From Limisphaerales bacterium (lineage in GTDB: Bacteria; Verrucomicrobiota; Verrucomicrobiia; Limisphaerales; JAYPXF01): DNA of 64,000 nucleotides. Position 1 is the first letter of the stretch. Each line of letters starts with the position of its first letter. The stretch covers positions 66,816 to 130,815 of the forward strand of contig JBLFYM010000001.1 of assembly GCA_047608975.1 (NCBI GenBank), written 5' to 3'. Shown here one piece after another: positions 12,281-57,507 of the stretch. Below the pieces are notes generated by a model, which was not told the DNA's origin, made no database searches, and was given only the letters and a program-made list of their open reading frames with translations. A program made the translations under genes and the position numbers.

Positions 12281-12283
12281 GCC

Positions 12284-13771
12284 ATGAATCCGAATATCTC
12301 TCCGCAGGAAACCATCGATCTCACGCGCCGCGACTTTCTCGCGACCACCGGCATGGGCACGCTTGCCTTGGCCAATCTGTTGCTCAAGGACGGGCTTATC
12401 GCTCCGGGCGCGATGGCAGCGGGCCGGTCGGATCCGCTCGCGCCGCGGCAACCGCATCTCCCCCCGAAAGCGAAGAACTGTATCCTGATCTATTTCGAAG
12501 GTGCGCCGAGTCACGTGGATCTCTTTGATCCAAAGCCGAAGTTGAACGAGATGGATGGCAAAGCCTTGCCGGATGAGATGTTGGAGAAAGTGCGCTTCGC
12601 GTTCATCAAAAAGGAAAGTGTCCGCCTGATGGGCTCGCCGCGGAAGTTTACGAAGTATGGGCAGTGCGGCATGGATCTCAGTGACTTGCTGCCGCATCTC
12701 GGTGGCGTGGCGGATGAGATTGCCTGGCTGCGGGGAATGCATACGACTCAGTTCAACCATCATCCCGGCCAGTTGCTGATGAATAGTGGTTCGCCGCTCT
12801 TTGGTCGGCCGACGATGGGTGCGTGGTTAAACTACGGATTGGGGAGTGAGTCCGAAGATTTGCCGGGTTACGTGGTGCTGACCGCCGGACGAGGATCGAG
12901 TGGCGGATCGAGTGCCTGGTCGAGTGGCTTCTTGCCGACGAGTTATGCCGGTGTGCTGTTTCGCAATAGCGGTGATCCGGTACTGAATCTCTCCAACCCG
13001 CCGGGATTCACGAAGGAGATGCAGCATCTCGGTTTGGATGCGATTGGTGATCTGAACAAGCTCCGCTTCAAGCACGTCGCCGACCCCGAGATCTCATCGC
13101 GGATTGCGGCTTACGAATTGGCGGGGAGGATGCAGGCGTCGGCTCCAGAACTGATGGATCTGTCCGGTGAATCCGAGACGACCAAGGAAGCCTACGGTCT
13201 CAACCGCACGACGCCGAACACCAAGAACCGGGGTGGGGGAGCCGGGACTTACGAAACCTTCGCGCGCAACTGCCTACTCGCGCGCCGACTGGTTGAACGC
13301 GGCACGCGCTGCGTGACTCTGCTGCACGCCTCATGGGATCACCATAGCAACCTCGATAACGAACTGCCGTTCTGCGCGGGAATGTGCGATCAGCCAATTG
13401 CCGCCCTCATCAACGATCTCAAGATGCGCGGAATGCTGGATGAGACCATGGTGATTTGGGCTTCAGAATTTGGCCGTACGCCGCTGGGTGAGAATCGGAG
13501 CACTCGCGGGGGCGTCACCGGGCGCGATCATCATCCGTATGCGTTCACGACCTGGGCGGCAGGCGGTGGGCTCAAGGGTGGTGAGATCGTCGGTGAAACG
13601 GACGATCTGGGTTGGGGCGTCACGAAGGATCCGATCACGCCTCACGATCTTCATGCGACCGTACTGAATCAGTTTGGGTTCAACGCCGAGGAACTGACGT
13701 ATCGGTTTCAGGGGTTGGACTTCCGTCTGACCGGATTCGAAGGCGCGAATATCATCAAACAGATTGTTTGA
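12284..13771 (+). CDS. DUF1501 domain protein (sulfatase-like fold) with twin-arginine signal
   Basis: RRDFLATTGMGTLALA; ILIYFEGAPSHVDLFDPKP; WDHHSNL; WASEFGRTP; GRDHHP. It starts 3 nt after the stop of 9224..12280, the classic DUF1553/DUF1501 pair. Confidence 0.9.
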   Translation: MNPNISPQETIDLTRRDFLATTGMGTLALANLLLKDGLIAPGAMAAGRSDPLAPRQPHLPPKAKNCILIYFEGAPSHVDLFDPKPKLNEMDGKALPDEMLEKVRFAFIKKESVRLMGSPRKFTKYGQCGMDLSDLLPHLGGVADEIAWLRGMHTTQFNHHPGQLLMNSGSPLFGRPTMGAWLNYGLGSESEDLPGYVVLTAGRGSSGGSSAWSSGFLPTSYAGVLFRNSGDPVLNLSNPPGFTKEMQHLGLDAIGDLNKLRFKHVADPEISSRIAAYELAGRMQASAPELMDLSGESETTKEAYGLNRTTPNTKNRGGGAGTYETFARNCLLARRLVERGTRCVTLLHASWDHHSNLDNELPFCAGMCDQPIAALINDLKMRGMLDETMVIWASEFGRTPLGENRSTRGGVTGRDHHPYAFTTWAAGGGLKGGEIVGETDDLGWGVTKDPITPHDLHATVLNQFGFNAEELTYRFQGLDFRLTGFEGANIIKQIV

Positions 13772-13808
13772 TGACGATCAGAGGGACTCTGGCTTCCAGA
13801 ATTGGCAG

Positions 13809-14360: not shown

Positions 14361-15482
14361 TCAGTTCTCCCGCATATAGAGCTGCGCATTCTCCGCCTTT
14401 TCGGCGTGGGAAGTGCCGGGGTAGCGACGGATGATGCGATCGAGGGTTAGTCGGGCGGCGTCCGTGTCGCGCGCCACCCGGGATTGCCAGTCGGCGATCA
14501 TGTGAAGCCAGCGGCAGCAGTCATCCTTGGTGGTGCCGCGACCTCCGATCATCTTTTCCACTTCATCGATGGCGCAGGGGAGGTTGTTGTAATGCTCGAG
14601 ATAGATGAGTGCGAGCTGCTCCCGGGTATCCCAATCGTTCGGATGCTCGTTGAGGTGAGCGGTGAACTGCTCGGCCTGTTCTTCCGGATCGATCTGTTCG
14701 CGCTGGATCTGAACGGTTCCACCTTTCAACCCGATGTCTCGTTCGTATTCTGGCAGGACCTTTCCCTTCGGTTGATCTGCTGCTTCGAGCGTTTCACGAT
14801 CCACCATCTTCGCGATCCGTTGTTCGGCGCTGATGGCGGCTTTGCTGCCGTAGGCCTTTTCAACAATCTGTTCCAGGCATTCGACCGCCGCGTCCGGATC
14901 CTTGCCATACTTCAAATGCCAGTCCACCAGAGTGTTTAGTGCGTAGATCATTTGTTTTTTACTCACCTTGCGTTTACGGGCGACCACGCTTTGGATGAGG
15001 GCAGCGGCGACGGGAAGCTGGTCCATGTCTTCGGCCTGGATGCTGGCGATGAGCATGTAGCAATCGAAGTCGTGTTTGAATTGTTTGAGCTGGGCCTGAG
15101 CTTCGTCGAGCGCTTCCTCGTAGCGTCCCTGCTTACGTAGGGCTTCGGCTTTGGAGAGGCGGGCGGTCTTATCAACTTTTCCGCCCCTGTCCATTCCGCT
15201 CGTGAAAATGTTGCTGAGCATTTCGGCTGTTTCACCTCCCCAAAGGAGCAGATAAAGAAGTGCGATGCCGATTGAGTAGAGCAACCCGTAAGGTGGCTTC
15301 TTTTGCGCCTTTATGAACCACATCGTCACGAACACGGTGAGACCTATTTTGATCAGGAAATGGAGTTTGTTGTCCGCGTTTAGAAACAGTTTGAGAAGCA
15401 CCCACGCGGCGAGCGTGTAGCCAGCGTAGGTGAGGGCCTGATCTTGGGTGATCTTGGCAAGTAGGAGGGACTCAGGTGACAT
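14361..15482 (-). CDS. membrane protein with N-terminal TM helices and TPR-like helical repeats (hypothetical)
   Basis: 373-aa ORF. Hydrophobic segments: YAGYTLAAWVLLKLFL, IKIGLTVFVTMWFI, LLYSIGIALLYLLLWG. TPR-like helices: AEALRKQGRYEEALDEAQAQL, and C-terminal LTLDRIIRRYPGTSHAEKA. Confidence 0.55.
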   Translation of the reverse strand: MSPESLLLAKITQDQALTYAGYTLAAWVLLKLFLNADNKLHFLIKIGLTVFVTMWFIKAQKKPPYGLLYSIGIALLYLLLWGGETAEMLSNIFTSGMDRGGKVDKTARLSKAEALRKQGRYEEALDEAQAQLKQFKHDFDCYMLIASIQAEDMDQLPVAAALIQSVVARKRKVSKKQMIYALNTLVDWHLKYGKDPDAAVECLEQIVEKAYGSKAAISAEQRIAKMVDRETLEAADQPKGKVLPEYERDIGLKGGTVQIQREQIDPEEQAEQFTAHLNEHPNDWDTREQLALIYLEHYNNLPCAIDEVEKMIGGRGTTKDDCCRWLHMIADWQSRVARDTDAARLTLDRIIRRYPGTSHAEKAENAQLYMREN

Positions 15483-15555
15483 TGACCAGTGGGTTAAACC
15501 GAGAAATATCGGCGAGGTCGAGTTCGATCGCCGGATTCTTCAGATGCCGGGGTAC

Positions 15556-15601
15556 AAAAAAACCGGGGCAGCCAGTCTGAGGAAGACTGCAACCGCCCCG
15601 G
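15556..15601 (-). terminator. rho-independent terminator-like hairpin (minus strand)
   Basis: Minus-strand sense: CCGGGGCGGTTGCAGTC-TTCCTCA-GACTGGCTGCCCCGG followed by TTTTTTT (the A7 run at 15556-15562 on the plus strand). It lies about 75 nt upstream of the start of 14361..15482 and about 265 nt downstream of the stop of 15865..16161. Confidence 0.55.
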
Positions 15602-15864
15602 GGAGGTTTCAGAAACGAGGCACACATGTAGGATAGGAGGGTTCCCCGGAGTGGACTGTGCCGACCCAAACCGGAAAGTGAAACAGCCTCAAAAGAGCGT
15701 AATGCGCTTCATCGGCCAAATTCGTATCCTGCGATGGGATGAATAGACAACGGATTCTAATAAACGTCAAGTGTGATTATGAAATATTAATAAATGTAAT
15801 CTTCCTGTAACATTTCGAGGCTCCGGTAGACGTCTCTTAAGTTGTTGATATTGAGTGATTTAGG

Positions 15865-16161
15865 TCAATCTCCGAACAATCGTTTTAGTTCGTCGCGCGC
15901 TTTGGATGCGCGATCATCTCCAGTGGCGGCTCCCTTAAACTCACGTTTCGCCAACTCGAACCACTCGCAAAACGTGCCCATGTTCTTTTCCTGAACCGGT
16001 TCCGCCCGGCGATCCCGGCACTGTTGGGCGATGTTCGGGTCGTAGTTCAGGCAGTTCAGACAGACCCGGAGGTCGCTACGGCAGCTTGGGCACTGTTCGC
16101 CGCGACCGGGTTGTCCGCTGATCGTCCATTCGGTTCCACATTTCCAGCAATGTCGATTCAT
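15865..16161 (-). CDS. small zinc-ribbon protein (hypothetical)
   Basis: 98 aa with three CxxC pairs: CWKC, CPSC, CLNC. Confidence 0.55.
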   Translation of the reverse strand: MNRHCWKCGTEWTISGQPGRGEQCPSCRSDLRVCLNCLNYDPNIAQQCRDRRAEPVQEKNMGTFCEWFELAKREFKGAATGDDRASKARDELKRLFGD

Positions 16162-42517: not shown

Positions 42518-42670
42518 TCACCCATCCGAAAGTGCCTTGCCGTTTCCCGGCGCGATATCCAATTGCCTCGTAACGGCTTGGTGTCCTTCGTGGTCTGTCG
42601 CCTTGGTACGGCGTGGCACAGACTTCAAAATCCTTGCCGGAATTCTTCGGATGCGAACAATGCACCGCAC

Positions 42671-45600
42671 ATGAAACGCATCAGAGGCATTCTGGCACTG
42701 ACCCTATGTTTTCTGTCTGCATCCGGTTTTGCCGCCGCGCCCGCCAAGCTGAAGGCTCTGCTCGTGGCCGGGGGGTGTTGTCACGATTACAAAGGGCAGT
42801 ACAAGGTTCTTTCCGAAGGCATCCAAGCCCGCGCCAACGTGCAGGTGGATGTCTGGTGGACGGATGACCGGAGCACCAACCCGCCGCTCGACCTCTACGA
42901 CAATCCCGACTGGGCCAAAGGCTACGACGTGATCATTCACGACGAATGTGCCGCGGGTAACAAGGACCTGGAGGTCTTTCAGCGAATCCTCGACGCCCAC
43001 AAGACCATTCCCGCCATTCATCTGCATTGCGCGATGCACAGCTTTCGGAATGGCACGGACGGGTGGTTTAAGCACCTCGGTCTGCAGTCATCCAGTCACG
43101 GTCCCCAGGCCCCTATCGAGGTGAAGTTCAGCAAGAGCGCGCATCCCATCACCGCCACCCTCAAGGACTGGACCACGATCCGCGAAGAACTCTACAATAA
43201 CCTCAAAACCTTCGGCATCACCCCGCTTGCGACCGGTAAGCAGGTCATCAAACGCAAGGGCAAGGAACAGGTCGTGGAGCACATCGTCGTTTGGACGAAC
43301 GAGAAGCATGGTGCCCGCAGCTTCAGCACCACCTTGGGGCACAACACCGAGACCGTCGCCGATCCGCGCTACCTCGAACTCGTTACCCGCGGTCTGCTTT
43401 GGGCCTGTGACCAGTTGGACCCCTCTGTTCTAGGCAAGCCTTACCAGGGTGAAAACAAGATCACCTTCGTCAAAGCCAAACCCCAGAAGGCGAAGCCCGC
43501 TCCGAAGGACGCCACGCTGGTAACCGTGACCGCCAGTAGTGTCCAGGGTGGTCGCGATCCGTGGATGGCCATCGATGGCAACAAGAAAACCCGTTGGTGC
43601 GCCGCCAACAGCAGCAAGCCGCAATCGCTACAACTCGAGTTCGACAAGCCGCAGGAACTCACCGGCGTGAACATCAACTGGGAGAGCCAGACTACCACTT
43701 ACGGCTACAAACTTGAGAGTTCCCTCGACGGTGAAAAATGGAATCTTGTGCACGACGCCACCGGCAACCGGGAACCGGGGGATACTTCCGACAAATTCCC
43801 CGCCGCCAAACTCAAGTTCCTCCGTGTCACCGGCACGAGCGCTGGCAGTTGGATCAGCCTTTGGGAACTCACCGTCCAAGGCAAAGGTATCAAATCCCTC
43901 TACCCGAAACTCGACCAGAAGACCGCCGCCAAACTCAAGACCGCTGCTAACGATCCACTCAAAGCCGGCGGCAACATCAAGCCCCAGATCGTCAAACTCA
44001 CGGCGGCAGAAGAAGCTGCAATTTTGAAGGACGTCAAAGTTCCCGAGGGATTCGAAGCCACACTTTTCGCCCCGTCACAAACCGCGAACTACCCGGTCTA
44101 TGTCGCTGCATCCCCCGGCGGCGATCTCTACGTCTCCAGCGACGGCAATGGTTCACTGGGCCGCAATCCCAATCGTGGTCGCATCCTCCGCCTCCGCGAT
44201 AATGACGGTGATGGTCGCGCTGACGAAGTGACCGAATTTGTAAAGAACATCGATTCGCCGCGCGGAATCATCTGGGATCACGACCGCCTCTACGTGCTGC
44301 ACCCACCGCACATCACTGTCTATTTCGATCGGGACGGGGACGGCATCGCCGAGAGTTCCAAACGTCTCATCCAGGGCATCGCCTTCGGCTTCGGCAATCG
44401 TCCGCCCGATCATACGACCAACGGACTCGAACTCGGCACCGACGGTTGGATCTACATCGCCGGTGGCGACTTCGGATTCATGGAAGCCCGCGGCACCGAC
44501 GGTCGCCGACTCCAACACCGGGGTGGGGGAGTCATCCGTTTTCGCCCTGACGGCACGGGTCTGGAAATCTTCGCGACCGGCACCCGCAACATCCTCGGCA
44601 CGCCCATGAGCCCGCTCCTCGACCTCTTCGCCCGCGACAACACCAACGACGGCGGCGGTTGGGACGTTCGCTTCCATCACTTCAGTGGACTCGAAGACCA
44701 TGGCTACCCGCGCCTCTACAAAAACTTCGCCAACGAACACATTCACCCGCTCGCCGACTACGGTGGCGGTTCCGGCTGTGGCAGCGTCTACATCCACGAA
44801 CCCGGATTCCCCACCGAATGGGCTCATGCCCCCTTTACCTGCGACTGGGGCCGCGCCGGACTCTTCCGCCACAGCGTCAAACGCCAAGGTGCCGGATTCA
44901 TCGAGACCGAAGCTCCGAAGACCTTCATCAAAGTGACCCGTCCCACCGACGCCGATGTGGACGGCATGAGCCGCGTCTACCAGGCCAGCTGGAAAGGCCC
45001 GGCCACCTTCAACTGGGCGGGACCTGACCACGGCTACATCACCCGCGTCACGCCGAAGGCCTTCAAGGCAAAGGCTCTCCCTGATTTCGACAAGCTCGAG
45101 GACGCTCAACTGATTCAGCTCCTTGAATCTCCCAGCCACATTCGCGCTCTCACGGCCCAGCGCACTCTGCTCCGTCGCGATGTTTCCGAGGTCACCACCA
45201 AATCGCTGATGGGATTGGCCAGCAACAAATCCAAAGAACTCCGCGCCCGCGTGGGAGCCCTCTACGCCATCACCCAACGCGGCATCGACAGCAGCCACAG
45301 TGAAAGCGTCATCAAGACCGTTTCCCCGCTCGCAAAAGACGCCACCATCCAACCTTTTCTACTGCGCGCCCTCGGCGACATGGGCATCGACCAATTGACC
45401 AAAGGCAAAACCGGTCCTGCCCCCGCTGATCTGTTGATCGCCGGAGCCAGGAGCAACGATCCCCGGACACGGGTCGAAGCCATCATCGCCGCTACGCGCC
45501 AGCAGAACCAAGCCGCAGCTGAGACCATTGCCCAAAGTCTCGGACACCCAGATCCGGTCATTGCCCACACCGCCTTCCGTGCCTTGACCAAACTGATCTC

Positions 45601-47077
45601 GCCCGGTCCCGCGTTGGCTATTCTCGACACCGCCGCCAGCTCGGAAGCCCAACGTGCCGGCGCATCGCACGCCCTCATGCGCATGCACAAGAAAGACGTT
45701 ATTGATGCCCTTATCAAACGCCTGCCCTCCGCTTCGAAAGAATCGCAGCCATTTATCCAGGCCGCTCTGTGCCGTCTCTATCACCGCGAAGCGGATTGGA
45801 CCGGCGACTCCTGGGGCACCCGCCCTGACACGCGCGGCCCCTACTACCAACTGGAAACTTGGGACGAATCTGCAAGCATCCTCAGTGCTCTCAAAACCGC
45901 TTTGGTCAAAGCCACGGCCGGTGAAGCTGCTCAGTTGATCACTGAGATGAACCGCAATCGCATCCACGACAATGACGCCCTCAACCGCATCATTCAGGTC
46001 GCGACTGATGACGACGCCCACGTCATCACCGCAGTCGCCCAACTCGCGGCGGCGAAAGACATCCCAGCCAAAGCTGTCCCCCTGCTCATCAAAGCTGCGC
46101 GCCGGGAAGACACCCCACCAATGGTTCTCTCGCAGACCATCGAATGTCTCAACAAGGTCAACCTCCCGGAGGCCCTCGCAGCAACCCTTTCTGCCCTTTC
46201 AGTTCTGGATCACGTCAAAGGCGCGGGCAAAGCACAGAGTGCCGCGCAAAATGCCTTTCTGAAGAATCGAAACCTCGACAACCAATACGCGGCCCTCGCC
46301 GAGCTTGCGGCCAAGGACACCGAATCCGGTGAAACGCGTTGGGCCCACGCCGGCCTGCTGGAACTCGCCTCTCGCAAAAACTCAGGCCCCGAGGCCAAAG
46401 CCCACGCCACCAAGGAAATTGACCTCGCCTGGCAGGACCCGGCCCGCCGCGTCCTCCTGATGAAACTCGCCGGAGACCTGAGGAACCATCATCTGGACGC
46501 CCGCATCGCCGCCGCCATGAACGACTTCGATCCCGATGTCGTCAAGGTAGCCAAAGCCGCCGCCAGGCGATTGAAAATCCAGCCCCCCGGTGCCGACAAA
46601 ACTCCCAAGTTGGAAACGCTGAAGCTCGAAGATGCGTTGGCTCAGGCCATCAAGTTGAAAGGTGACCCCGCCCTCGGCGAAGCCGTGTTCATGAAGGCCG
46701 CCTGCGCCTCCTGTCACACCGTCAGTCAAGACCAGCCGCTAAAAGGTCCCTACCTCGGGAATATCGCCAACACCTACCGTCGCAACGACCTCGCACTATC
46801 CATCCTCGATCCCAACAAAATCATCGCTCAAGGCTTCGCCACGCACTCCATCACGATGGCCAATGAATTCGAATATACCGGCTTCATCACCAAGGAAGCC
46901 GCCGACCAGATCACGCTCCGAGACGTCACCGCACGAGAACACATCCTGAGGAAATCTGAGATTGAACAACGGAAGACGCTGCCAAACTCCATCATGCCCC
47001 CCGGCCTGTTGAACGCCTTCTCCCTCAAAGAGTTCGCGAGTTTGCTAGACTATTTGGAAGGTCTTTCGAAGAATTGA
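42671..47077 (+). CDS. giant secreted multidomain protein: ThuA-like / F5-8 type C (discoidin) / beta-propeller dehydrogenase-like / HEAT repeats / C-terminal haem-binding (CxxCH) domain
   Basis: ORF 42563..47077. ATG 42671 gives MKRIRGILALTLCFLSASGFAAAP. ThuA-like: KALLVAGGCCHDY...IHLHCAMHSF. Discoidin-like: AIDGNKKTRWCA...LQLEFDKPQELTGVNINW. Pirellula/Verrucomicrobium-type dehydrogenase domain: VPEGFEATLFA...DGRADE. HEAT-like repeats follow. C-terminal GEAVFMKAACASCHTV. Confidence 0.85.
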   Translation: MKRIRGILALTLCFLSASGFAAAPAKLKALLVAGGCCHDYKGQYKVLSEGIQARANVQVDVWWTDDRSTNPPLDLYDNPDWAKGYDVIIHDECAAGNKDLEVFQRILDAHKTIPAIHLHCAMHSFRNGTDGWFKHLGLQSSSHGPQAPIEVKFSKSAHPITATLKDWTTIREELYNNLKTFGITPLATGKQVIKRKGKEQVVEHIVVWTNEKHGARSFSTTLGHNTETVADPRYLELVTRGLLWACDQLDPSVLGKPYQGENKITFVKAKPQKAKPAPKDATLVTVTASSVQGGRDPWMAIDGNKKTRWCAANSSKPQSLQLEFDKPQELTGVNINWESQTTTYGYKLESSLDGEKWNLVHDATGNREPGDTSDKFPAAKLKFLRVTGTSAGSWISLWELTVQGKGIKSLYPKLDQKTAAKLKTAANDPLKAGGNIKPQIVKLTAAEEAAILKDVKVPEGFEATLFAPSQTANYPVYVAASPGGDLYVSSDGNGSLGRNPNRGRILRLRDNDGDGRADEVTEFVKNIDSPRGIIWDHDRLYVLHPPHITVYFDRDGDGIAESSKRLIQGIAFGFGNRPPDHTTNGLELGTDGWIYIAGGDFGFMEARGTDGRRLQHRGGGVIRFRPDGTGLEIFATGTRNILGTPMSPLLDLFARDNTNDGGGWDVRFHHFSGLEDHGYPRLYKNFANEHIHPLADYGGGSGCGSVYIHEPGFPTEWAHAPFTCDWGRAGLFRHSVKRQGAGFIETEAPKTFIKVTRPTDADVDGMSRVYQASWKGPATFNWAGPDHGYITRVTPKAFKAKALPDFDKLEDAQLIQLLESPSHIRALTAQRTLLRRDVSEVTTKSLMGLASNKSKELRARVGALYAITQRGIDSSHSESVIKTVSPLAKDATIQPFLLRALGDMGIDQLTKGKTGPAPADLLIAGARSNDPRTRVEAIIAATRQQNQAAAETIAQSLGHPDPVIAHTAFRALTKLISPGPALAILDTAASSEAQRAGASHALMRMHKKDVIDALIKRLPSASKESQPFIQAALCRLYHREADWTGDSWGTRPDTRGPYYQLETWDESASILSALKTALVKATAGEAAQLITEMNRNRIHDNDALNRIIQVATDDDAHVITAVAQLAAAKDIPAKAVPLLIKAARREDTPPMVLSQTIECLNKVNLPEALAATLSALSVLDHVKGAGKAQSAAQNAFLKNRNLDNQYAALAELAAKDTESGETRWAHAGLLELASRKNSGPEAKAHATKEIDLAWQDPARRVLLMKLAGDLRNHHLDARIAAAMNDFDPDVVKVAKAAARRLKIQPPGADKTPKLETLKLEDALAQAIKLKGDPALGEAVFMKAACASCHTVSQDQPLKGPYLGNIANTYRRNDLALSILDPNKIIAQGFATHSITMANEFEYTGFITKEAADQITLRDVTAREHILRKSEIEQRKTLPNSIMPPGLLNAFSLKEFASLLDYLEGLSKN

Positions 47078-47094
47078 GCCGAAGACTTTTCGAC

Positions 47095-47826
47095 ATGGGA
47101 GAACCTCGTTTACTGATCATGGGTGGGTGCAACGGTGCCGGCAAAACAACCTTGGCTCGCGAACTCTTGCCTATGCTTGGGATCGCTCGGTTCCTGAATG
47201 CGGATGAAATTGCGCGAGGTCTTTCTCCTTTGGACATCTCGCTTGCAAACGTGAGTGCGGGGCGCTTGCTGTTGGCGGAGGTGGCGAGTCTGATTCAAAC
47301 CGGCAAAGAGTTCGCGATGGAATCCACACTGAGCGGTCGGGCGCAGGTCCGCCTGATCCAGCGGGCGAAGGAATCGGGCTATCGATTTGTTTTGCACTAC
47401 GTCCTGCTGGACTCTGCCAAACAATCCAGCGAACGCGTGAAACTGAGGACATCGCTGGGGGGCCACGATGTGCCTGAAGCAGATCTTGCCCGACGGTTCG
47501 ACCGGAGCGTTGCGAATTTTTGTGAAAACTACCTTCCGCTTGCGGACGACTGGGTGGTATGGGAAAATTCAAATCCACCGGCGCGGCAAATCGCGTCGGA
47601 CCAGACTCATTCCAAAGAACAAATCATCGCCATGTTAAAAGGCACTCATCTTCAGGAAACACCCGACGCCAATCAATCGGAACAGGTCCGCCTTGGCTTG
47701 GAGGCGAGCCGACGCGCGACGGCAAAGATGCTCGATTACTACCGCCGCATGGGCGTGAAGGTGACCCCGCAGATGACTTTGGCTGATCCTGATGAAGTCT
47801 TGGATGTCCCGCGTGGGGTGCTTTAA
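47095..47826 (+). CDS. zeta-toxin-like / COG4185-type P-loop kinase
   Basis: ORF 47074..47826 (its TTG overlaps the upstream TGA); ATG at 47095. Walker A LIMGGCNGAGKTTLA, FLNADEIA, and the kinase-core context VLHYVLLDSAKQSSERV. Confidence 0.65.
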   Translation: MGEPRLLIMGGCNGAGKTTLARELLPMLGIARFLNADEIARGLSPLDISLANVSAGRLLLAEVASLIQTGKEFAMESTLSGRAQVRLIQRAKESGYRFVLHYVLLDSAKQSSERVKLRTSLGGHDVPEADLARRFDRSVANFCENYLPLADDWVVWENSNPPARQIASDQTHSKEQIIAMLKGTHLQETPDANQSEQVRLGLEASRRATAKMLDYYRRMGVKVTPQMTLADPDEVLDVPRGVL

Positions 47827-49235: not shown

Positions 49236-49325
49236 TACCGGGGGCTATCTGTTCTGGGTGATCTATTCATTACGTTCACTTTCTCATGAACTGGTCAGGA
49301 AATCTAGCACGCCTCAGAAAATGGA

Positions 49326-50246
49326 TTAAGACTTTTGAGAGGGATGGCTTTTGTCTTGGACTACCTGCGCTTGTTGGCGACCGTAATCTTCCAGTAAACT
49401 GTTTAGTGGTTTTGTTTCCTTGTTTTCGTCTGCTACTAAATAGTCCAAAACAGCCGTTGCCGTCGTAGGGTTCGTTGCGAATGGGACTTGGTATACATCA
49501 CAAAGTCTACCCAGGGCTTCTATGTCCGCATGGTGAGGATGTGCTGATAGTGGATCACGAAAGAAAATAATGCCTTTGATATTGTCTGTGGAAATCATCT
49601 GGCCGATTGCCTGGTCTCCGCCTAGTGGGCCTGACTTTACTTTTTTGGATAAGACAATTTGCGCTTCTTTATATAATAACGTTCCAGTGGTTCCAGTGGC
49701 CACGAGTGGGAATTTGTTTATTTTATTCAGGTTAGATTTGACGAATTGAACCAACGATTCCTTCATCTCGTTATGCGCTACTAACCCCAGATATTTAACG
49801 TTATCTTGAGTGAAGAATATTTTATTAGCGGTAGCGTTCTTTTTATACAGGTCTTCGAAGATATACTTGCACTTGAGGGCTACTTTTGAGTCCTGGCGCA
49901 GGAGTGTTTCATACGCGGTAAGGTCAAATTCCAAAACCTCTGTGGGTTCCATGGCAACAGCGTCAGCAGTCCGCTTTCCCTGGTCCGAAAACATAGCTTC
50001 GCCAAATACCTCTCCTTTAGACAAGCTTGCTATCAAGTGATTATCATGATGAATATTCACTTGTCCACTGATGGTGAACATCAGGGAAGTAGCAGGTTCT
50101 CCTCCCTTGAGGATAATCGCTTTTTCACCATACTTACGTGTGGTCGACACGCCGATTAGCTGAAGAATTTCATGATTCGCCAATCGTCCAGCTAATGGAG
50201 TAGTTTTTGAGAGAATACCAATTAAATCTGCACTCGTTTTGCTCAT
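49326..50246 (-). CDS. mgsA: cyclic-nucleotide-binding domain / methylglyoxal synthase fusion protein
   Basis: N-terminal cNMP-binding barrel with phosphate-binding cassette GEVFGEAMF...GKRTADAVA. C-terminal MGS domain: LGLVAHNEMK, LVATGTTGTLL, SGPLGGDQAIGQMI, IIFFRDPLSAHPHHADIEAL. Confidence 0.8.
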   Translation of the reverse strand: MSKTSADLIGILSKTTPLAGRLANHEILQLIGVSTTRKYGEKAIILKGGEPATSLMFTISGQVNIHHDNHLIASLSKGEVFGEAMFSDQGKRTADAVAMEPTEVLEFDLTAYETLLRQDSKVALKCKYIFEDLYKKNATANKIFFTQDNVKYLGLVAHNEMKESLVQFVKSNLNKINKFPLVATGTTGTLLYKEAQIVLSKKVKSGPLGGDQAIGQMISTDNIKGIIFFRDPLSAHPHHADIEALGRLCDVYQVPFATNPTTATAVLDYLVADENKETKPLNSLLEDYGRQQAQVVQDKSHPSQKS

Positions 50247-50269
50247 TTTAATCCTTTCGAGGTTTGATC

Positions 50270-50311
50270 ATAGTAGTTGGAGAATAGTAGTTGGAGAATA
50301 GTAGTTGGAGA
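50270..50311. repeat. perfect tandem repeat, 14 bp x 3
   Basis: ATAGTAGTTGGAGA repeated three times without a mismatch (50270-50283, 50284-50297, 50298-50311), 24 bp upstream of the start codon at 50246. Confidence 0.95.
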
Positions 50312-50488
50312 ATTCAAAATGCTTAACGTCGGTTGATTAAGTGTCGTATCTATCCTTTCTTTCAAGCTGTAGCAATGAATAAATACTTTTGTTCCATCAC
50401 AAAAATACGTCCGCAACAAACGATCGTTGTGAAGACAAAGATTAGTGGACTCACGCCTTGGCCCGAGCAATTCCTGCGGCGGATGGGT

Positions 50489-51823
50489 CTATTTCTTTTT
50501 CCCGAGGTCCTTGATCATCTGGCAGATGTACTCGACGTTTTCGAGTGACTCGGTAATCGCTTTCGGGAGGTCGGTGGCGATCTGGCGGGAATCGGCGCTG
50601 GTCAGTAGATCAGGGTTCTCTTCCGACGGGCTGCCCGGAGTGACGGAATCGACGAGCTTTTGCTGCTCGGCGAGCATGGGGGTGATGCGATTGACAGTGT
50701 CTTTGACGTAGTGGATGCGGTGGGAAAGGGTTTGGAGCGGCGATTGGAGGCGCGTCGCCAGATCTTGCGAATCGGTGGCGGTGGATTCACGGGCTTCGAG
50801 GAGTTTCTTGGTGAGGAAAGCGGTCTGGGATTCCATCTCCTTATGCTTGGAGAGATCGCGGGCGACGATGACGAGATGGGGTTCGTTGTCGATCTTCTCG
50901 CGGATGGCGCAAACGCGAGCTTCAAGGTGGCGCCAGGTACCATTCTTGTGTTGGAGGCGGAATTCCAGGATCTGGCAGGTTTCCTGATTGATGCAGGCGG
51001 AGATGGAGGCGGTGGCTGCCTCCGTGTCGTCAGGATGCAGCCATTCGAAAATCGAACTGTCCTGCGAACCCTCGAGATTGCGCCCGAGGTTTTTCATGAC
51101 GGAAGGGCTGAAGTATTCGGGCTTCCCTTCGACGCTCATCACGATGATGAGGTCGGCGGCGTTCTCGGCGATCAGTTTGAACCGTTCCTCGCTGAGGCGC
51201 AGTCGTTGTTCGGAGCGTTGATAGTTGTCGACGTTTTGTTGGAGGATGCTGATGGAGTTCCGCAGATCGTTGGTGCGCGCATTGATGATGTCTTCGAGCT
51301 GGTCGAATCGCAGTCGGGCTTCCTGCTGCAGGCGCCACTTCTCGGTCATCGCACAGGCAAGCTGCAGGACTTCCACGTTGTCGAACGGTTTCTTGAGGAT
51401 GACGAGGCGGTCGGATTGGCCGAACTTGCCGATCATTTCGTCCCAGGAATAATCTGAGTAGGCTGTGCAAATGACGACCTGAAGGTCGGGGTCGGCTTCC
51501 CAGAGGTGGGTGGTAGTTTCGATCCCGTCCCAGCCTGGTGGCATCCGGACATCGACGAAGGCGAGCGCGAAGGGTGCCTTTTGGGCGAGCGCTTCCTTGG
51601 TCTGCTCGAGCGCTTCCTGGCCTTGGGATGCGAAGGTGAGTTCGTAATCTGTGTAGTTTGCCTTGGCCGGGGCATCTTCGCCAAACAACGCAGACTCGGC
51701 CGCCTCGAGTTCCGAATCTCCGGCGGGAGCGTTGGCGAGGATCTTACGGAAATCTTCGTGAATGGCCTGATTGTCATCGACGATCAGAATTCGTCGATTT
51801 TTTGGGATGGTTTGCTCGCTCAA
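50489..51823 (-). CDS. response regulator with PAS domain and helical C-terminal region (no recognisable enzymatic output)
   Basis: REC: RILIVDDNQAIHEDFRKIL...LAFVDVRMPPGWDG...LKKP. A coiled coil follows, then PAS (ERFKLIAENAADLIIVMS...HKNGTWRHLEARV). The TTG start overlaps the upstream stop (TTGA) and is preceded by AAGGA. Confidence 0.8.
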   Translation of the reverse strand: MSEQTIPKNRRILIVDDNQAIHEDFRKILANAPAGDSELEAAESALFGEDAPAKANYTDYELTFASQGQEALEQTKEALAQKAPFALAFVDVRMPPGWDGIETTTHLWEADPDLQVVICTAYSDYSWDEMIGKFGQSDRLVILKKPFDNVEVLQLACAMTEKWRLQQEARLRFDQLEDIINARTNDLRNSISILQQNVDNYQRSEQRLRLSEERFKLIAENAADLIIVMSVEGKPEYFSPSVMKNLGRNLEGSQDSSIFEWLHPDDTEAATASISACINQETCQILEFRLQHKNGTWRHLEARVCAIREKIDNEPHLVIVARDLSKHKEMESQTAFLTKKLLEARESTATDSQDLATRLQSPLQTLSHRIHYVKDTVNRITPMLAEQQKLVDSVTPGSPSEENPDLLTSADSRQIATDLPKAITESLENVEYICQMIKDLGKKK

Positions 51824-53931
51824 TTTGTTTCCTTCTCAAAAAGTTTTGTGGGGAGTTTCACGACGAACATGGCTCCTTTGCCCAGACCTTCGCTTTCGGC
51901 GCTGATGGAACCGCCCATTTCCGTAACGGCTAGCGCGCTGCTGTGCAATCCAAACCCGTGGCCGTCCTTCTTGGTGGTGAATCCGTGGGCGAAGATGGTT
52001 TCCAGGTTTTCCTTGGAAATGCCTTTTCCCGTATCGCGCACGCTGATCTCCACGCCGTCTTCATTCAGCTGCCGGGCGGTGATGTAGAGTTTCTTGGGGG
52101 AGGCTTCGAGCATTGCCTGCTTGGAGTTGCGGATCAGGTTCACGAGCACCTGGAGGAGCTTGTTCTTGACCACAAAGATCGGCGGAGTCGCCTCGATCTG
52201 CTTCACCACATCCACGTCGTGCCGGCTGAGTGAGGAATCTTCCATGTTGAGGGCCTGATCGATCAGCTCCGTGGGGGCGATCAGCTCGATGGTGCCGCCG
52301 ACTTTGGCGTAGCCCTGCTGGGTGGCAATGATTTCGCCGATGTGATCGACGTTCTTGCGCATTTCGGACAGTTCGTTCAGGAGGGCGTCCCGTTCGTCCC
52401 GCAGAACCCCCGCAAGTTTTTCGAGGAAAGTGGGAATCTGACGCCCTTTCTCGTTTTCCGTCAGAAAGGCACTGAGGTTGTCCTTGTTTGCATTGAGCAG
52501 GCGGCACACCCGATCGAGATTGGAAGTCTTGGAACGCCGGATCTTTTCGGAGACGACATTGGCAGACACATTCACACTGTTGAGCACGTTGCCGACATTG
52601 TGCAGCACGCCGGTGGCGACTTCGGCCATGCCGGCCAGGCGCGAGGTTTCGACAAGGTCCTCGTTCTTTTCCTGAAGTTCGCGTTCGGTGCGTTTGAGTT
52701 CCGTGATGTCTCGTGAAATCCCAATGAGACCACTGATCTCCTGCATCGAATCGTAGATGGGGACCTTGGTGACGGACGCCCAGATGGTTTCGCCGGAGGG
52801 GCTTTTCTGCTTTTCCATCTTGTTCACCATGGGTTTGCCGGTAGCCATGATCAGCTCCTCATCCTGCATGAACTGCCGGGCGAGGTCGGGGGGGTGAAAG
52901 TTGAAATCGGTTTTTCCGACCACCTGTTCGGGGTTTTCCACGCCCAGCCGTTCAGCCAAGGCCTTGCTGACTTTCATGAAGCGGGACTGGGTGTTTTTGA
53001 AATAGATACGGTCAGGCATGTGGTCGAGCAGGGCCTGCAGGAGTTCGCGGTATTGCGCCATCTCCAGCTCGGCTTCGACCAGTTCGGTGATGTCCTTGGC
53101 GATGCCGAAGGTTCCGATGACGCGTCCGTCGGGATTGCGCCAAGGAATCCGGGAGGTGAGAACCCAGGAAGATTTGCCATCGGGGGTGGTCTCGCGTTCC
53201 TTCTTCCCGAGGATCGGTTTGCCGCTGCGAATGACGTCCTGATCGTCAGCGAAAGTGGCGAGTGCGTGTTCCTCGGAAAAGAAATCGAAATCGCTTTTTC
53301 CAACTGCGGCTGCGGGCCCCTCCAAACCGAACTGACGGGCGAGGGAATCGCTACTGCGGACATAGTGGGATTCCGTGTCCTTGAAGAAAAGTCGGTCGGG
53401 GGAGTTCTTCATGAACGCTTCGATGAGCGAGCGTTCGTATTCCGCGTCTTCTCCAAACCCGCCTTTGGCCGCCATGAGCCGGGTGTTCCCCGCCGCCTGC
53501 TGATGGCATTCCAGCCGAGCTTTGGTCACCAACGCAGAAACGATATAACGTAACGTGATGGCGCTCGGATGCACCAGCGGTACTACCCGATCCGAGGCTC
53601 CGAATTGCCGCGTCCAGTCGTCGGCCTCGATGTCGGCCTCGGCGTCCTGAACCACCAAGATCTGTAGATTCGGATGTCGTATCCAAAGATCGCCGGCGGT
53701 ATCCAGCCCGGTGCCATTCGGCATCTTCCGGGGGCTGAGAATTACGACCGAGGTACCCGAGATGTCAGATTCGCCGGCGACTGCGCTCTCGAGTTCGCCG
53801 CTGGTCGGAACGGCAGCGTAATGGGCCAGTTCGGGGTGATCTTTCTCAATCTGCTCCAATAACGCCGAGACGGTTCCGTTCTCATCCCATACGAGAACGC
53901 TGGCCGGGGTCGGTGGCGCTGAAGATTCCAT
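51820..53931 (-). CDS. sensor histidine kinase with N-terminal pseudo-receiver and two PAS domains
   Basis: H-box-like [18 protein letters not shown] boxes [23 protein letters not shown]. Two PAS domains ([12 protein letters not shown]...; [13 protein letters not shown]...). The N-terminal REC-like fold has Ser at the acceptor position ([14 protein letters not shown]). Confidence 0.85.
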
Positions 53932-54099
53932 GCTGTGGTTGTGGACCCGAAGGTCGCCTGAGCGATAAGAGGAGTGTAGAGATCAGGTCCGGGCACTCAA
54001 GCCCAACCTGACAATTACACTGGATTTTTGTGCATTGAAACTGGGGTGAAAGCGGGGAGGGGATCATTTTTCCGATGCGGGTCATTCGGTTCGTCAGGG

Positions 54100-54237
54100 G
54101 AAACTCCGGACTCCAAAAAACAAGCTCAAATAAAATTTAGGATTCAAAATCCAATTAAACTCGCCCGCTTCAACCCGCACCCGCGGATTGAAGCTTGGAG
54201 ATTATTTGGAGCTTGTTTTTGAGGCTTGGAGCTTTTT
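54100..54237. repeat. CTCCAA / TTGGAG inverted-unit intergenic element (best copy)
   Basis: Left arm: GAAACTCCGGACTCCAAAAAACAAGCTCAAATAAAATTTAGGATTCAAAATCCAAT. Core: TAAACTCGCCCGCTTCAACCCGCACCCGC. Right arm: GGATTGAAGCTTGGAGATTATTTGGAGCTTGTTTTTGAGGCTTGGAGCTTTTT. The arms are imperfect reverse complements of each other. Confidence 0.6.
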
Positions 54238-54309
54238 CAAATTCCGCCCGCTCGGCATTGTCTCGTCCGTCTCCGCCTCAACTTTTTACAGAGACACTGG
54301 ATTTTGCCT

Positions 54310-55593
54310 TCAGAAGGTAGGTTCCCAGCCGGGGCGGTAAGAGCGTTTCCAATATTTCATCGCTTCCGGATTATCGATCGGTTTACCGGTCTTTTGATCG
54401 ATGTTGAGGACGCTGTTGCTGCGATACGCGATGTTGCCGAGGTGGCACCAGATCGAGCTGATCTGGGCGTCGCGGATATCGGCATTGAGCGGTTTGTCGT
54501 CGCGGATAGCATCGGCGAGATTCTGGAAATGAGGATCTTGGTTGCTGCTGCCTTTGATCCGTTCGATCTCTTTGCCGCGGAGATCGTGGATGACAAAATC
54601 CGCATTGCTGAAGCCCATGATCCCTTCGGTCCCGTAAAACGCGACGAATGGGGTGGGTTCGCTTTTCCGGGGGTGACAACTGCTGGCCTCCCATGTCGCT
54701 CCAGCGTCGCCGCAATGGTAGGTGGCGTAAGCAGTGTCGGGAGTTTCCTGGTCATCATCAAAGTGGTAACGGCTGCCCATGCAGGAAACCTGCTTCGGGT
54801 ATTTTACACCGAGACCCCAGCGGCAGATATCGAGGGCGTGGATCCCGTTGTTGGCGAGTTCGCCACCACCGTAATGCCAGTGCCAGTGCCAGTTGTAGTG
54901 AAGGAGATTGTCCTTGTAGGGGCGTTCCGGCGTCGGGCCCTGCCACATCTCCCAATTCAACCAGTCGGGAACCGGCGCGGGTTTGCCCTTGCCGATCGTT
55001 CCCCGGGCACTTTTGTACCAGGTGCGGGTGTAGAGAACTTTTCCGATGGCACCGGCCTTGAGCCGTTCGATTCCCTCGCGGTAGTGGGGCATGCTCCGGC
55101 GCTGGTTGCCCATCTGCACCTTGCGTTTGTGCTTATCGGCCGCCTCCATGAGGGCCTGGGATTCCCAGGCATTGTGACTGCCGGGTTTCTCCACATAGAC
55201 GTGTTTGCCCGCGTTGATCGCCATGATCGCGGCGGGTGTGTGCCAGAAGTTTGGGGTGGCGATGGAGATGATGTTCACATCGCGGTCCTCAAAGATACGC
55301 CGCATGTCGGTGACGCCCTTCACCTTGCGCTTTTTTTGGCGGGATTCGACCGACTTTGTCGCAGAGGCGAGGCGAGTCTCATCCACTTCGCAGACATATC
55401 CGACTTCGACGTTCTTGCGTGTCAGCCAGGATCCCACATGGGACATGCCGCGGCGCAATCCGACGACCCCCACGGTCAGGCGATCTCCGGGACTTCCGTC
55501 GGCAAACACTGCCGGCGGGGTGGAGGCGGCCAGCATGGCTCCGATGGCTCCGGTTTTTTGAACGAAACTACGACGGGTCTCTTTGTTATTCAT
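54310..55593 (-). CDS. Gfo/Idh/MocA family oxidoreductase with twin-arginine signal
   Basis: MNNKETRRSFVQKTGAIGAMLAAS; Rossmann LTVGVVGLRRGMSH; HVYVEKPGSHN. The 468-aa plus-strand ORF 54226..55632 is its antisense shadow. Confidence 0.85.
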   Translation of the reverse strand: MNNKETRRSFVQKTGAIGAMLAASTPPAVFADGSPGDRLTVGVVGLRRGMSHVGSWLTRKNVEVGYVCEVDETRLASATKSVESRQKKRKVKGVTDMRRIFEDRDVNIISIATPNFWHTPAAIMAINAGKHVYVEKPGSHNAWESQALMEAADKHKRKVQMGNQRRSMPHYREGIERLKAGAIGKVLYTRTWYKSARGTIGKGKPAPVPDWLNWEMWQGPTPERPYKDNLLHYNWHWHWHYGGGELANNGIHALDICRWGLGVKYPKQVSCMGSRYHFDDDQETPDTAYATYHCGDAGATWEASSCHPRKSEPTPFVAFYGTEGIMGFSNADFVIHDLRGKEIERIKGSSNQDPHFQNLADAIRDDKPLNADIRDAQISSIWCHLGNIAYRSNSVLNIDQKTGKPIDNPEAMKYWKRSYRPGWEPTF

Positions 55594-55742: not shown

Positions 55743-56210
55743 ATGGGTCAGGCGGATCGCGCGGAGATCGATTGTGCGGGCACCGGGGATTTCCAAGGCA
55801 TTCACCTGCATTTCCACGGCCCCTTTGCGGAGCTTCATTGTTCCAAGTTCCAGCCATGTCCAGATCGCCGCGATAGCGATCACTGAACCCGGGTTCGCGG
55901 GTGGCATTTTGCCAGGCCGCTCGCCACGGGCGTGAGTTTCTGGGCCCGGATGAGCGCAGCGAAGGGGTGGATACTCCTGACACTGGTGTCCAATTCCGGC
56001 CCGGATCGACAGACCGTGATGACGGCAAAATCCGCGGTTGAGGTCGGGAGAGAGTGGAAACTGATCCGATTCCCGGTGACGGCATTCCATTCGCGTTCCT
56101 TCGTGGATGTGGATCGGGCGACGATTGAATTCATCGGCGAGGGGCCGACCGAGTTTTTCCTGGATGATCTGCAACTTGAGGGACGCTGGCGGCCGTTTGG
56201 GCTGCGCTGA
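55743..56210 (+). pseudogene. possible decayed gene for a jelly-roll / carbohydrate-binding-like domain, interrupted by in-frame TGA at 55884
   Basis: A single reading frame gives MGQADRAEIDCAGTGDFQGIHLHFHGPFAELHCSKFQPCPDRRDSDH-TGA-TRVRGWHFARPLATGVSFWARMSAAKGWILLTLVSNSG...IRFPVTAFH...IEFIGEGPTEFFLDDLQLEG. The tail pattern (G.SFW...; F.LDD..L) is typical of CBM/CIA30-like domains. Only the part after the stop (55932..56210) appears in the ORF track. Confidence 0.3.
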
Positions 56211-56311
56211 CTCGGGTGATCTTCAAAGGACGTTGGCCTCGGGGCCGTCGGATTATCGAGAATCCTAAAGGGCGGCGTGAATTCGATTTGTTCGCCTGCC
56301 CCTGAAATCCA

Positions 56312-56340
56312 TTGACGCTCTCAGGGTGCGTCTCTATTTT
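56312..56340 (+). promoter_or_regulatory. sigma-70-like promoter candidate for gltA
   Basis: TTGACG (56312-56317), a 17-nt spacer, then TATTTT (56335-56340), 46 bp upstream of ATG 56386. Confidence 0.3.
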
Positions 56341-56385
56341 TGTGCTCCTTAAAACACAAAACTAAAAACAGATGCGAATTATCAG

Positions 56386-57507
56386 ATGAGTGCAGCAGGA
56401 AAAGGTCTGGATGGAATTATAGCGGCCAGTACGAAGCTTAGCGACGTAAGGGGACAGGAAGGCGTGCTGATTTACAATGGTTACAACATTGATGAGTTGG
56501 CCGGGCATGTGAGTTTTGAGGAAGTTGTTCACCTTCTTCACTATGGAACACTGCCGAACCGCGCGCAGCTGGATGCGTTGCACGCGACGCTTCGCGGCCT
56601 ACGCGAACTTCCCCAGGGAGTGATCGATATCATCAAGAGTCTTCCCAGCGATGCTCCTCCGATGCATGCCATTCGCACGGCGGTTTCGGCTTTGGGCTGC
56701 ACGGATAGCAATGCGGACGACCAGACTTTGACGGTTCAGCAACGGCAGGCGCTGCGGTTGATCGCCCAGATCCCGGTTGCGATGGCCGCTTTCCACCGTC
56801 ACCGGCAGGGCAAGGAAGTCATCGCGCCCGATCTGGAATTGGGCGAAGCCGCCAACTTCCTCTACATGATGGATGGGGAGAAAGCATCCGACGAAGCCGT
56901 GTCGACCCTGGACATGTGCTATGTCCTTCACGCCGATCATGGCATGAACGCTTCGACGTTCAGTGCGCGAGTCACAATTTCGACCCTGAGCGACATGTAT
57001 TCTGCGGTGACCACGGCGATCGGCACCCTCAAGGGCCCGCTCCATGGCGGTGCCAACGAAGGCGTCATCAAGATGCTTCAGGAGATTGGCAGCCTCGACA
57101 AGGTCGATGCGTTCATCGATGAGGCCTTGGAGAAGAAGCTGAAGATCATGGGCATTGGGCATCGTGTCTACAAGGTGCTCGATCCCCGAGCTCCGCACCT
57201 GAAGCGCATGGCGCACATCCTGAGTTCCAAGCTGGGTGAGCCAAAATGGATTGCCATGAGCGAACGCATCGCCGAATTGATGCTGGAGAAGAAGAACCTC
57301 AATGCGAACGTCGATTTCTATTCGGCCACGGTTTACTACTCCTTGGGAATTCCAACCGATCTGTTCACTCCAATTTTTGCGATCGCACGCGCGGCCGGTT
57401 GGACCGCACACGTGTTGGAGCAGTTGGCTGACAACCGGCTGATTCGCCCGCAGAGCGAATACGTCGGGCCCGTTGGCCTGAAGGTGGTTCCCGTCGATCA
57501 ACGATAA
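56386..57507 (+). CDS. gltA: citrate synthase
   Basis: GLDGIIAASTKLSDV, HADHGMNASTF, GPLHGGANE, GIGHRVYKVLDPRA. Confidence 0.9.
   Translation: MSAAGKGLDGIIAASTKLSDVRGQEGVLIYNGYNIDELAGHVSFEEVVHLLHYGTLPNRAQLDALHATLRGLRELPQGVIDIIKSLPSDAPPMHAIRTAVSALGCTDSNADDQTLTVQQRQALRLIAQIPVAMAAFHRHRQGKEVIAPDLELGEAANFLYMMDGEKASDEAVSTLDMCYVLHADHGMNASTFSARVTISTLSDMYSAVTTAIGTLKGPLHGGANEGVIKMLQEIGSLDKVDAFIDEALEKKLKIMGIGHRVYKVLDPRAPHLKRMAHILSSKLGEPKWIAMSERIAELMLEKKNLNANVDFYSATVYYSLGIPTDLFTPIFAIARAAGWTAHVLEQLADNRLIRPQSEYVGPVGLKVVPVDQR

Follow-up and report, generated by a model that had tools for sequence, protein, structure and literature searches.

The 64,000-nucleotide stretch of DNA analysed here (the window), which belongs to a metagenome-assembled genome (MAG) of Limisphaerales (Verrucomicrobiia), carries a methylglyoxal synthase (MGS) gene that raises two connected questions: why should an MGS domain be joined to what looks like a cyclic-nucleotide sensor, and how did such a gene come to lie in a markedly AT-rich islet? 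Canonical MGS is a homohexamer that converts dihydroxyacetone phosphate (DHAP) into methylglyoxal and phosphate, and its product, methylglyoxal, is a toxic electrophile. The coding sequence in question (49326..50246, (-) strand) begins with ATG and encodes 306 residues; an exact-sequence look-up identified the protein as NCBI MFT4687904.1, from a Limisphaerales MAG, with the single label “methylglyoxal synthase,” which hides both the sensor domain and an Asp-to-Asn change in the active site. On balance, it appears probable from the sequence that this gene encodes an MGS gated by a fused N-terminal cyclic-nucleotide sensor, and that a Limisphaerales host acquired it laterally, together with its upstream region, as a cassette of one gene.

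The two-domain structure of this open reading frame (ORF) had already been proposed in a preliminary description of the locus, and it was borne out by matches to both Pfam and NCBIfam. The N-terminal 140 residues contain a significant match to Pfam cNMP_binding, PF00027 (cNMP, cyclic nucleoside monophosphate; residues 37–119, E=2.9e-16, 59.7 bits against a gathering cut-off of 27.5, profile positions 2–89 of 89), and the remainder matches Pfam MGS, PF02142 (residues 165–258, E=2.6e-13, 50.3 bits against a gathering cut-off of 24.1), and the NCBIfam methylglyoxal synthase equivalog NF003559 (residues 149–277, 148.1 bits against a cut-off of 84). An AlphaFold2 model of the fusion, computed with 34 family members as input, reached a mean predicted local distance difference test (pLDDT) score of 82 and a predicted template modelling (pTM) score of 0.71, with both domains at about 90; the barrel of the first domain is followed by a long helix (residues 120–140), then by a hinge (residues 141–150), and then by the first MGS strand. 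No solved chain spanning both halves was returned by a Foldseek search with this model. Both halves are kept by purifying selection, since dN/dS (omega), which is 0.14–0.15 for the whole gene in comparisons with homologues of 88% and 83% identity, amounts to 0.26 for the cNMP-binding half and to 0.044–0.056 for the MGS half.

The cyclic-nucleotide-binding module comprises residues 5–140 (49827..50234, (-) strand) and is defined by the PF00027 match, an AlphaFold2 pLDDT of about 90, and Foldseek; in the model, N-terminal helices precede an eight-stranded barrel and a B/C helix that extends as the long helix 120–140. The best sequence relatives of this half in the Protein Data Bank (PDB) are the cNMP-binding domains of PKG, PKA-R, and CRP, and Foldseek retrieved those of CRP, GlxR, PKG, and PKA-R. 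The phosphate-binding cassette, GEVFGEAMFSDQGKRTADAVA (residues 78–98; 49953..50015, (-) strand), was recognised by conservation and by alignment with PKG and contains Gly82-Glu83 and Arg92-Thr93. In such cassettes, the Gly-Glu pair contacts the ribose 2'-OH and the Arg contacts the phosphate of cNMPs. Among 34 diverse fusion proteins, G82 and E83 never vary and at least 90% keep R92, and in the alignment with PDB sequences the cassette matches those of both PKG CNB-A and CNB-B, with FGE on FGE and RTA on RTA. The residue after the cassette Arg varies across the same 34 fusions (T, I, V, M, or F), and Thr93 was therefore rejected as a marker of specificity for cyclic GMP (cGMP). No helix-turn-helix (HTH) family was found in the Pfam scan of the fusion protein, the C-terminal half of which is MGS, unlike that of the CRP/FNR transcription factors; the CRP equivalog NF008732 scored 37.6 against a cut-off of 266, and over the sensor part only.

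That this domain senses some ligand other than a cyclic nucleotide, or is a mere oligomerisation module acting through its long C-helix, with the MGS regulated but not by cyclic nucleotides, seems unlikely. Such a role would agree with the resemblance of helix 120–140 to the CRP dimerisation helix, with the presence among the best Foldseek matches of the N-terminal half of the CRP-family members DNR and CLP (c-di-GMP), which are sensors of ligands other than cyclic AMP (cAMP), and with the absence of any nearby nucleotide cyclase gene. However, the near-complete conservation of the cassette Gly-Glu and Arg residues, their exact alignment with the PKG cassettes, and a Pfam score twice the gathering cut-off argue for cyclic-nucleotide binding.

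The MGS domain (residues 149–277; 49416..49802, (-) strand) is delimited by NF003559, PDB matches, Foldseek, and its low omega. The best PDB relatives of the C-terminal half are all methylglyoxal synthases, namely 8U2V (E=2.6e-32), 2XW6, 2X8W, 6F2C, and 1B93, and Foldseek superposed this half on 2X8W, 8U2V, and 1WO8 with template modelling (TM) scores of 0.88–0.92 (target-normalised) and root-mean-square deviations of 1.5–2.1 A. Every motif quoted in the preliminary description is present: apart from the cassette, these are VAHNEMK (residues 156–162), LVATGTTG (181–188), SGPLGGDQ (205–212), and FFRDPLSAHPHHAD (228–241). Residues were mapped by alignment to E. coli MgsA, the sequence of which was verified against PDB 1B93. 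In this alignment, E. coli His19, Lys23, Thr45/47/48, Ser65-Gly66, Asp71, Asp91, His98, and Asp101 correspond to His158, Lys162, Thr184/186/187, Ser205-Gly206, Asp211, Asp231, His238, and Asp241, respectively, and Asp20 corresponds to Asn159 and Asp149-Arg150 to Gln294-Val295, the last pair lying in the low-confidence C-terminal tail. In the E. coli enzyme, Asp71 is the catalytic base, and Lys23, Thr45/47/48, Ser65, and Gly66 bind phosphate. The catalytic D211, H238, D231, and D241 and the phosphate-binding K162, T184, T186, T187, S205, and G206 are present in the fusion protein; in the 34 diverse fusions, no variation occurs at H158, K162, T184, G206, G209, G210, D231, H238, and D241, at least 90% have D211, and the mapped MGS residues as a whole reach either full or at least 90% conservation. 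Only half of the His19-Asp20 pair is retained, the codons CAT AAC at 49770..49775 ((-) strand) encoding His158-Asn159.

The Asn at the position of E. coli Asp20 had been pointed out beforehand, and the alignment agrees with it; the same account had called the MGS domain complete, which holds for the other active-site residues and fails at this one. In Thermus MGS carrying D10N, the counterpart of E. coli D20N, kcat is 0.41 s-1 instead of 326 s-1, about 800-fold lower, with Km little changed, and in E. coli an intersubunit salt bridge links Asp20 to Arg150, through which allosteric signalling by phosphate has been proposed to pass from subunit to subunit of the hexamer (PMC4133812). Both partners of this bridge are substituted in the fusion protein (Asn159; Gln294/Val295), and by analogy with these enzymes the change is unlikely to be neutral. 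At the same time, it is no private mutation: among the cNMP-fused homologues retrieved, His-Asn occurred in 119 and His-Asp in 6, so that His-Asn is a hallmark of the whole fusion family. The nearest 150 representative clusters included 82 with His-Asn and 50 with His-Asp. In the homologue set P0121–P0269, 19 of the 29 stand-alone MGS representatives were His-Asp and most His-Asn proteins were longer and multidomain, an association with architecture that has an odds ratio of 4.4 (p ~0.001) in a sample biased towards the query. A compensating acidic residue at the following position (HNE) was considered and rejected as a general rule, since it is found in 122 of 199 members of the cNMP-fused clade, yet N, H, and E all occur there among His-Asn representatives.

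It could be supposed that Asn159 has crippled the domain or marks its repurposing, the protein being a cNMP-responsive binder of DHAP or phosphate, a scaffold, or a regulator that makes no methylglyoxal. The effect of D10N on the Thermus enzyme speaks for this, as does the score of the older and stricter equivalog TIGR00160 (133.9), which falls just under its cut-off of 146.9; the solved MGS structures matched are all His-Asp where alignments were shown, and MGS-like domains serve as effector-binding modules elsewhere, for example in carbamoyl phosphate synthetase (PMC4655335). This explanation is nevertheless improbable, because the remaining catalytic and phosphate-binding residues are invariant or nearly so throughout the family, omega of the MGS half is about 0.05, the equivalog NF003559 is matched above its cut-off, and a His-Asn majority among the nearest clusters is more readily expected of a natural variant that is active than of decay occurring again and again. 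The preferred reading is that the natural His-Asn enzymes may have given up phosphate allostery and may possess a low basal activity that is modulated by the fused sensor; it is favoured over that of a weak or repurposed domain because all other catalytic residues are so extremely conserved.

How the sensor might act is suggested by the topology of the model. Binding of cAMP or cGMP at Glu83/Arg92 would move the B/C helix (residues 109–140), as in CRP, PKA, and PKG, and this helix is joined through a hinge of about ten residues to strand beta1 (152–157), which would end at the active-site His158-Asn159-x-x-Lys162; along the sensor-helix-hinge-beta1 path, the hinge lies 6–10 residues from this motif. 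Because this path leads into the active site, ligand binding could switch catalysis or the oligomeric state; a change in the active site or at the hexamer interface would thereby gate methylglyoxal and phosphate formation from DHAP. The sensor would thus replace or supplement the phosphate control provided in E. coli by the Asp20-Arg150 bridge, and an overflow valve, phosphate recycling, or a growth brake are candidate physiological roles. In short, we infer control of the methylglyoxal bypass by a second messenger.

Several observations weigh against this interpretation. In addition to the shortfall with TIGR00160, the hinge (residues 141–150) and the C-terminal tail were modelled with low confidence, and a preference for cAMP or cGMP is unreadable from the sequence because the residue after the cassette Arg varies. 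By analogy with Thermus D10N, the fusion may have very little basal activity or an altered chemistry. The genomic context lends no functional support, because genes for nucleotide cyclases and glyoxalases are missing from the surrounding sequence out to about 10 kb and the neighbourhoods are not conserved. The taxonomy labels of MAGs are uncertain and call for caution wherever hosts are named.

The preliminary description had implied that such a fusion is rare. This did not hold, since N-terminally extended MGS are frequent in metagenomes and the cNMP-MGS architecture is common and widespread in marine bacteria; what stood is that no characterisation of it was found in the literature. A search of 5.8 billion proteins gave 584 matches; with few exceptions, the top 120 are chains of 295–310 residues in which both Pfam domains occur, and those that have a name are called only “methylglyoxal synthase.” An exhaustive search gave 3949 relatives among representatives at 50% identity. 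In a taxon scan with one genome per species, the fusion was found in marine Verrucomicrobiota (the closest, at 88%, in the “Pedosphaera sp. MED719” MAG) and Opitutia; by MAG label, in Planctomycetota, Latescibacterota, and Gemmatimonadetes; in the complete genome of Trichodesmium erythraeum IMS101 (322 residues; NC_008312, locus L021, 9971–10939); in many marine Synechococcus and Cyanobium, Hormoscilla, Rhodopirellula, and Brocadiaceae; and in several Proteobacteria, Fibrobacterales, Cytophagales, Flavobacteriales, and Spirochaetales. Bacteroidota are among the phyla represented. In one Verrucomicrobiota MAG (cluster2_bin.127; locus L011, 10001–10060), a stop codon follows the conserved ATG after 17 codons and the called protein, P0008, is shorter (273 residues), which may reflect a frameshift, a sequencing error, or an alternative start.

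Sensor domains of another type are attached to the same enzyme. Among 119 longer representatives, cNMP_binding is present in 26 and EF-hands in about 22; EF-hand-MGS proteins were confirmed by Pfam in P0141, P0148, and P0163, and an EF-hand pair together with cNMP_binding and MGS in P0132 and P0134. EF-hand/MGS fusions may be compared at loci L039 (Cytophagales) and L041 (Flavobacteriales), and the forms with EF-hands only may come from eukaryotic plankton. The domain content of these proteins suggests Ca2+-gated and dually gated methylglyoxal synthases, and the repeated attachment of EF-hand and EF-hand plus cNMP sensors to the same His-Asn domain supports the view of MGS as a regulated output. 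Extending this thought, we tentatively raise the possibility of a widespread, as yet unrecognised class of second-messenger-gated MGS with cNMP, Ca2+/EF-hand, and dual forms, built on a His-Asn domain without the salt bridge and spread laterally among marine bacteria, in which methylglyoxal would be deliberately signalled. Some 50 long His-Asn proteins are extended at the N-terminus by sequence that matches no Pfam family, and Isochorismatase, CoaE, HIT, DEP, and Na_Pi_cotrans were seen as further partner domains of MGS.

The fusion resembles canonical MgsA (EC 4.2.3.3; E. coli 1B93/1EGH/1IK4, Thermus sp. GH5 2X8W, B. subtilis 6F2C, and Borrelia 8U2V) in its alpha/beta fold (TM ~0.9, 38–48% identity) and in keeping the equivalents of Asp71, His98, His19, Asp91, Asp101, and the phosphate-binding Lys, Thr, Ser, and Gly residues. 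It differs in that canonical MgsA is a stand-alone enzyme of 125–180 residues, whereas here a cNMP-binding module of 145 residues is added at the N-terminus, and in that Asn takes the place of Asp20 and E. coli Arg150 has no equivalent, so that the salt bridge is absent. With the PF00027 domains of CRP/FNR and PKA/PKG type it shares the barrel and B/C helix, the canonical cassette, and the logic of sensor, helix, and effector; the effector there is an HTH domain or a kinase, and here it is a metabolic lyase. To our knowledge, MGS is so far known to be controlled by phosphate/DHAP allostery and, in Bacillus, by the protein Crh. In work by Landmann et al. from 2011, B. subtilis MgsA was reportedly found to be regulated by Crh, which is HPr-like. 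This sets an example of the methylglyoxal bypass being tied to carbon-status signalling beyond phosphate and DHAP, but it is protein-protein control in trans, whereas in the fusion protein a small-molecule sensor domain is placed in cis.

A further comparison is offered by Sll0036 of the cyanobacterium Synechocystis sp. PCC 6803, which contains an MGS motif and an NADK-like motif and for which regulation via the extra domain has been proposed (PMC11897720). Like the proteins considered here, it joins MGS to a putative ligand-binding module; unlike them, it has its NADK-like partner C-terminal to MGS, belongs to another lineage, and has no cNMP-binding domain. Being an MGS and NADK-like fusion, it was not accepted as a characterised precedent. 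The literature outside subscription-only papers yielded no description or characterisation of cNMP- or EF-hand-linked MGS, other returns being Sll0036 and engineering papers, and the one paper that names both cyclic-nucleotide-binding proteins and MGS concerns separate Leptospira genes and no fusion.

The gene of the window is, then, an ordinary member of a large family already present in databases, and it is the family that apparently constitutes an unreported link between second messengers and the methylglyoxal bypass. If true, this would be the first direct connection of cAMP/cGMP signalling (and of Ca2+ signalling in the sister architectures) to that bypass, and it would add a new class to the bacterial cNMP effectors, alongside transcription factors, channels, and acetyltransferases. 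In Trichodesmium, marine Synechococcus, and others, methylglyoxal would then be a signalled output (for instance to brake growth, to relieve overflow, or to recycle phosphate) and not a passive consequence of sugar-phosphate stress. The hypothesis is directly testable, since the fusion is found in ecologically important, culturable marine cyanobacteria, among them T. erythraeum IMS101 and Synechococcus.

As to the second question, the preliminary description had placed the gene on an AT-rich islet by means of six hand counts of G+C, all of which proved exactly right, and had suggested horizontal acquisition. Computed profiles of the G+C fraction (GC), of GC at third codon positions (GC3), and of codon usage set the gene strongly apart from the remainder of the window. 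The 1-kb interval 49501–50500 has a GC of 0.421, the lowest in the 64 kb, the next lowest being 0.515. Among the 43 non-overlapping long ORFs of the window, the fusion gene has a GC of 0.433 against 0.572 +/- 0.018 (z=-7.6), a GC3 of 0.427 against 0.683 +/- 0.051 (z=-5.0), and the largest synonymous-codon divergence of all (z=3.7). The 242-nt upstream spacer, with a GC of 0.405, is as AT-rich as the gene. Weaker dips, apparently intergenic, occur at about 53950–54400 and 56200–56650 (0.47–0.50 in 300-nt windows) and at about 15000–16000 (0.515 in a 1-kb window).

The nearest homologue, in the MED719 MAG (locus L010), is 88% identical in amino acids and 83.7% in nucleotides, and blastn and tblastx comparisons with loci L010–L019 delimit a common segment at 49319..50440 ((-) strand) that contains the gene with some 190 nt of its upstream and some 15 nt of its downstream flank. 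The host DNA at L010 has a GC of 0.48 against 0.57 in the window, and the rest of its 20 kb is at most 54% identical in amino acids to anything in the window, as against 88% for the fusion gene. The neighbours of the MGS homologue at L010 (5500–9200) find their best matches, at about 48–54% amino acid identity, in window positions 9700–13800, 36 kb from the MGS gene of the window; they may be paralogues, or orthologues, in which case a rearrangement would be implied. The homologue at locus L092 (83% in amino acids) adjoins an Mrr/ResIII helicase, so that homologues of 83–88% identity lie in three unrelated contexts, and more distant loci differ as well. The segment 49319–50440, comprising the promoter region and the gene, is the probable unit of lateral transfer. 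Lateral acquisition as a single-gene cassette is supported by the deviant GC, GC3, and codon usage together with the lack of synteny with the closest homologues, and also by the gene being 4–19 GC points below its flanks in most higher-GC hosts, among them Verrucomicrobiota, allied MAGs, and marine Synechococcus.

An old resident gene kept AT-rich by its expression level, mRNA structure, or amino acid composition would account for some of these data without any transfer. In its favour, and against acquisition, no tRNA gene was found in the 64-kb window, no integrase or transposase marks the islet, whose neighbours are a histidine kinase (HK), a response regulator (RR)-PAS gene, and a DUF1186 gene, and no convincing flanking repeats or target-site duplication were found there, just short repeats at chance level. 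Likewise, no empty site emerged from a metagenome scan with the DUF1186 neighbour, the nearest relatives being at most 66% identical and not syntenic. The arrangement is fixed in all of the at least 21 population contigs, and in many lineages the gene is AT-rich relative to its host. We nonetheless give this explanation little credence. Amino acid composition cannot explain the deviations in GC3 and in synonymous codons, which are the most extreme in the window; the equally AT-rich non-coding DNA upstream travels with the gene; and homologues of 83–88% identity occupy unrelated contexts, their hosts differing in GC (0.48 against 0.57). Moreover, GC of the gene is close to that of the flanks in low-GC hosts and 0.60–0.62 in high-GC hosts, to which composition it has ameliorated; low GC is therefore not intrinsic to the family.

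The upstream intergenic region (50247..50488, (-) strand) was delimited by its GC, by alignment with the upstream regions of L010 and L011, and by the blastn boundaries. Its part at about 50247–50440 is conserved with L010 and probably carries the promoter and 5' untranslated region (UTR) of the gene itself. A sequence resembling a ribosome-binding site, AAGGA, is located at 50252–50256, 5–6 nt upstream of the ATG. The conserved region had no Rfam match at E<=1, and a riboswitch or other known RNA upstream of the gene was accordingly discarded; promoter and terminator scans gave background levels. At 50270..50313 ((-) strand), 24–67 nt upstream of the ATG, Tandem Repeats Finder detected 3.1 copies of a perfect 14-bp tandem repeat, TTCTCCAACTACTA. 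Contigs of the same species contain one copy (L091), two (L090, L093, and L094), or three (L095, L096, and the window), and L010 has one diverged copy. The repeat could tune the spacing in the promoter or 5' UTR in the manner of a contingency locus, or it could reflect neutral slippage.

Downstream, the spacer that separates the cNMP-MGS gene from the convergent DUF1186/SEC-C gene (49236..49325, no strand assigned) has a GC of 0.456, and homology with L010 stops in it about 15 nt past the stop codon. At least 21 contigs from different samples show the order HK, RR/PAS, spacer, and cNMP-MGS, with DUF1186/SEC-C in convergent orientation; these contigs were independently assembled, and an assembly chimera was rejected on this ground. 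Read-through from the HK and RR-PAS genes into the cNMP-MGS gene is possible, but a functional operon with them is argued against by the gene's own conserved upstream region and by its different contexts elsewhere; a conserved operon was rejected as an explanation, given that the neighbourhoods differ among loci L001, L004, L007, L010, and L092. The two genes directly upstream together occupy 50489–53931 ((-) strand): the HK gene encodes a PAS-PAS histidine kinase of 703 residues with no HisKA Pfam match and overlaps the receiver-PAS gene, the product of which (444 residues) has no recognisable output domain. Further away, a pair of genes lies at 42563–47826. One encodes a 1504-residue protein with ThuA, F5/8 type C, DUF7133, HEAT-repeat, and C-terminal cytochrome c domains; it overlaps the downstream gene for a Zeta-toxin/AAA_33-like kinase by 4 nt, and this pair is kept in all population contigs.

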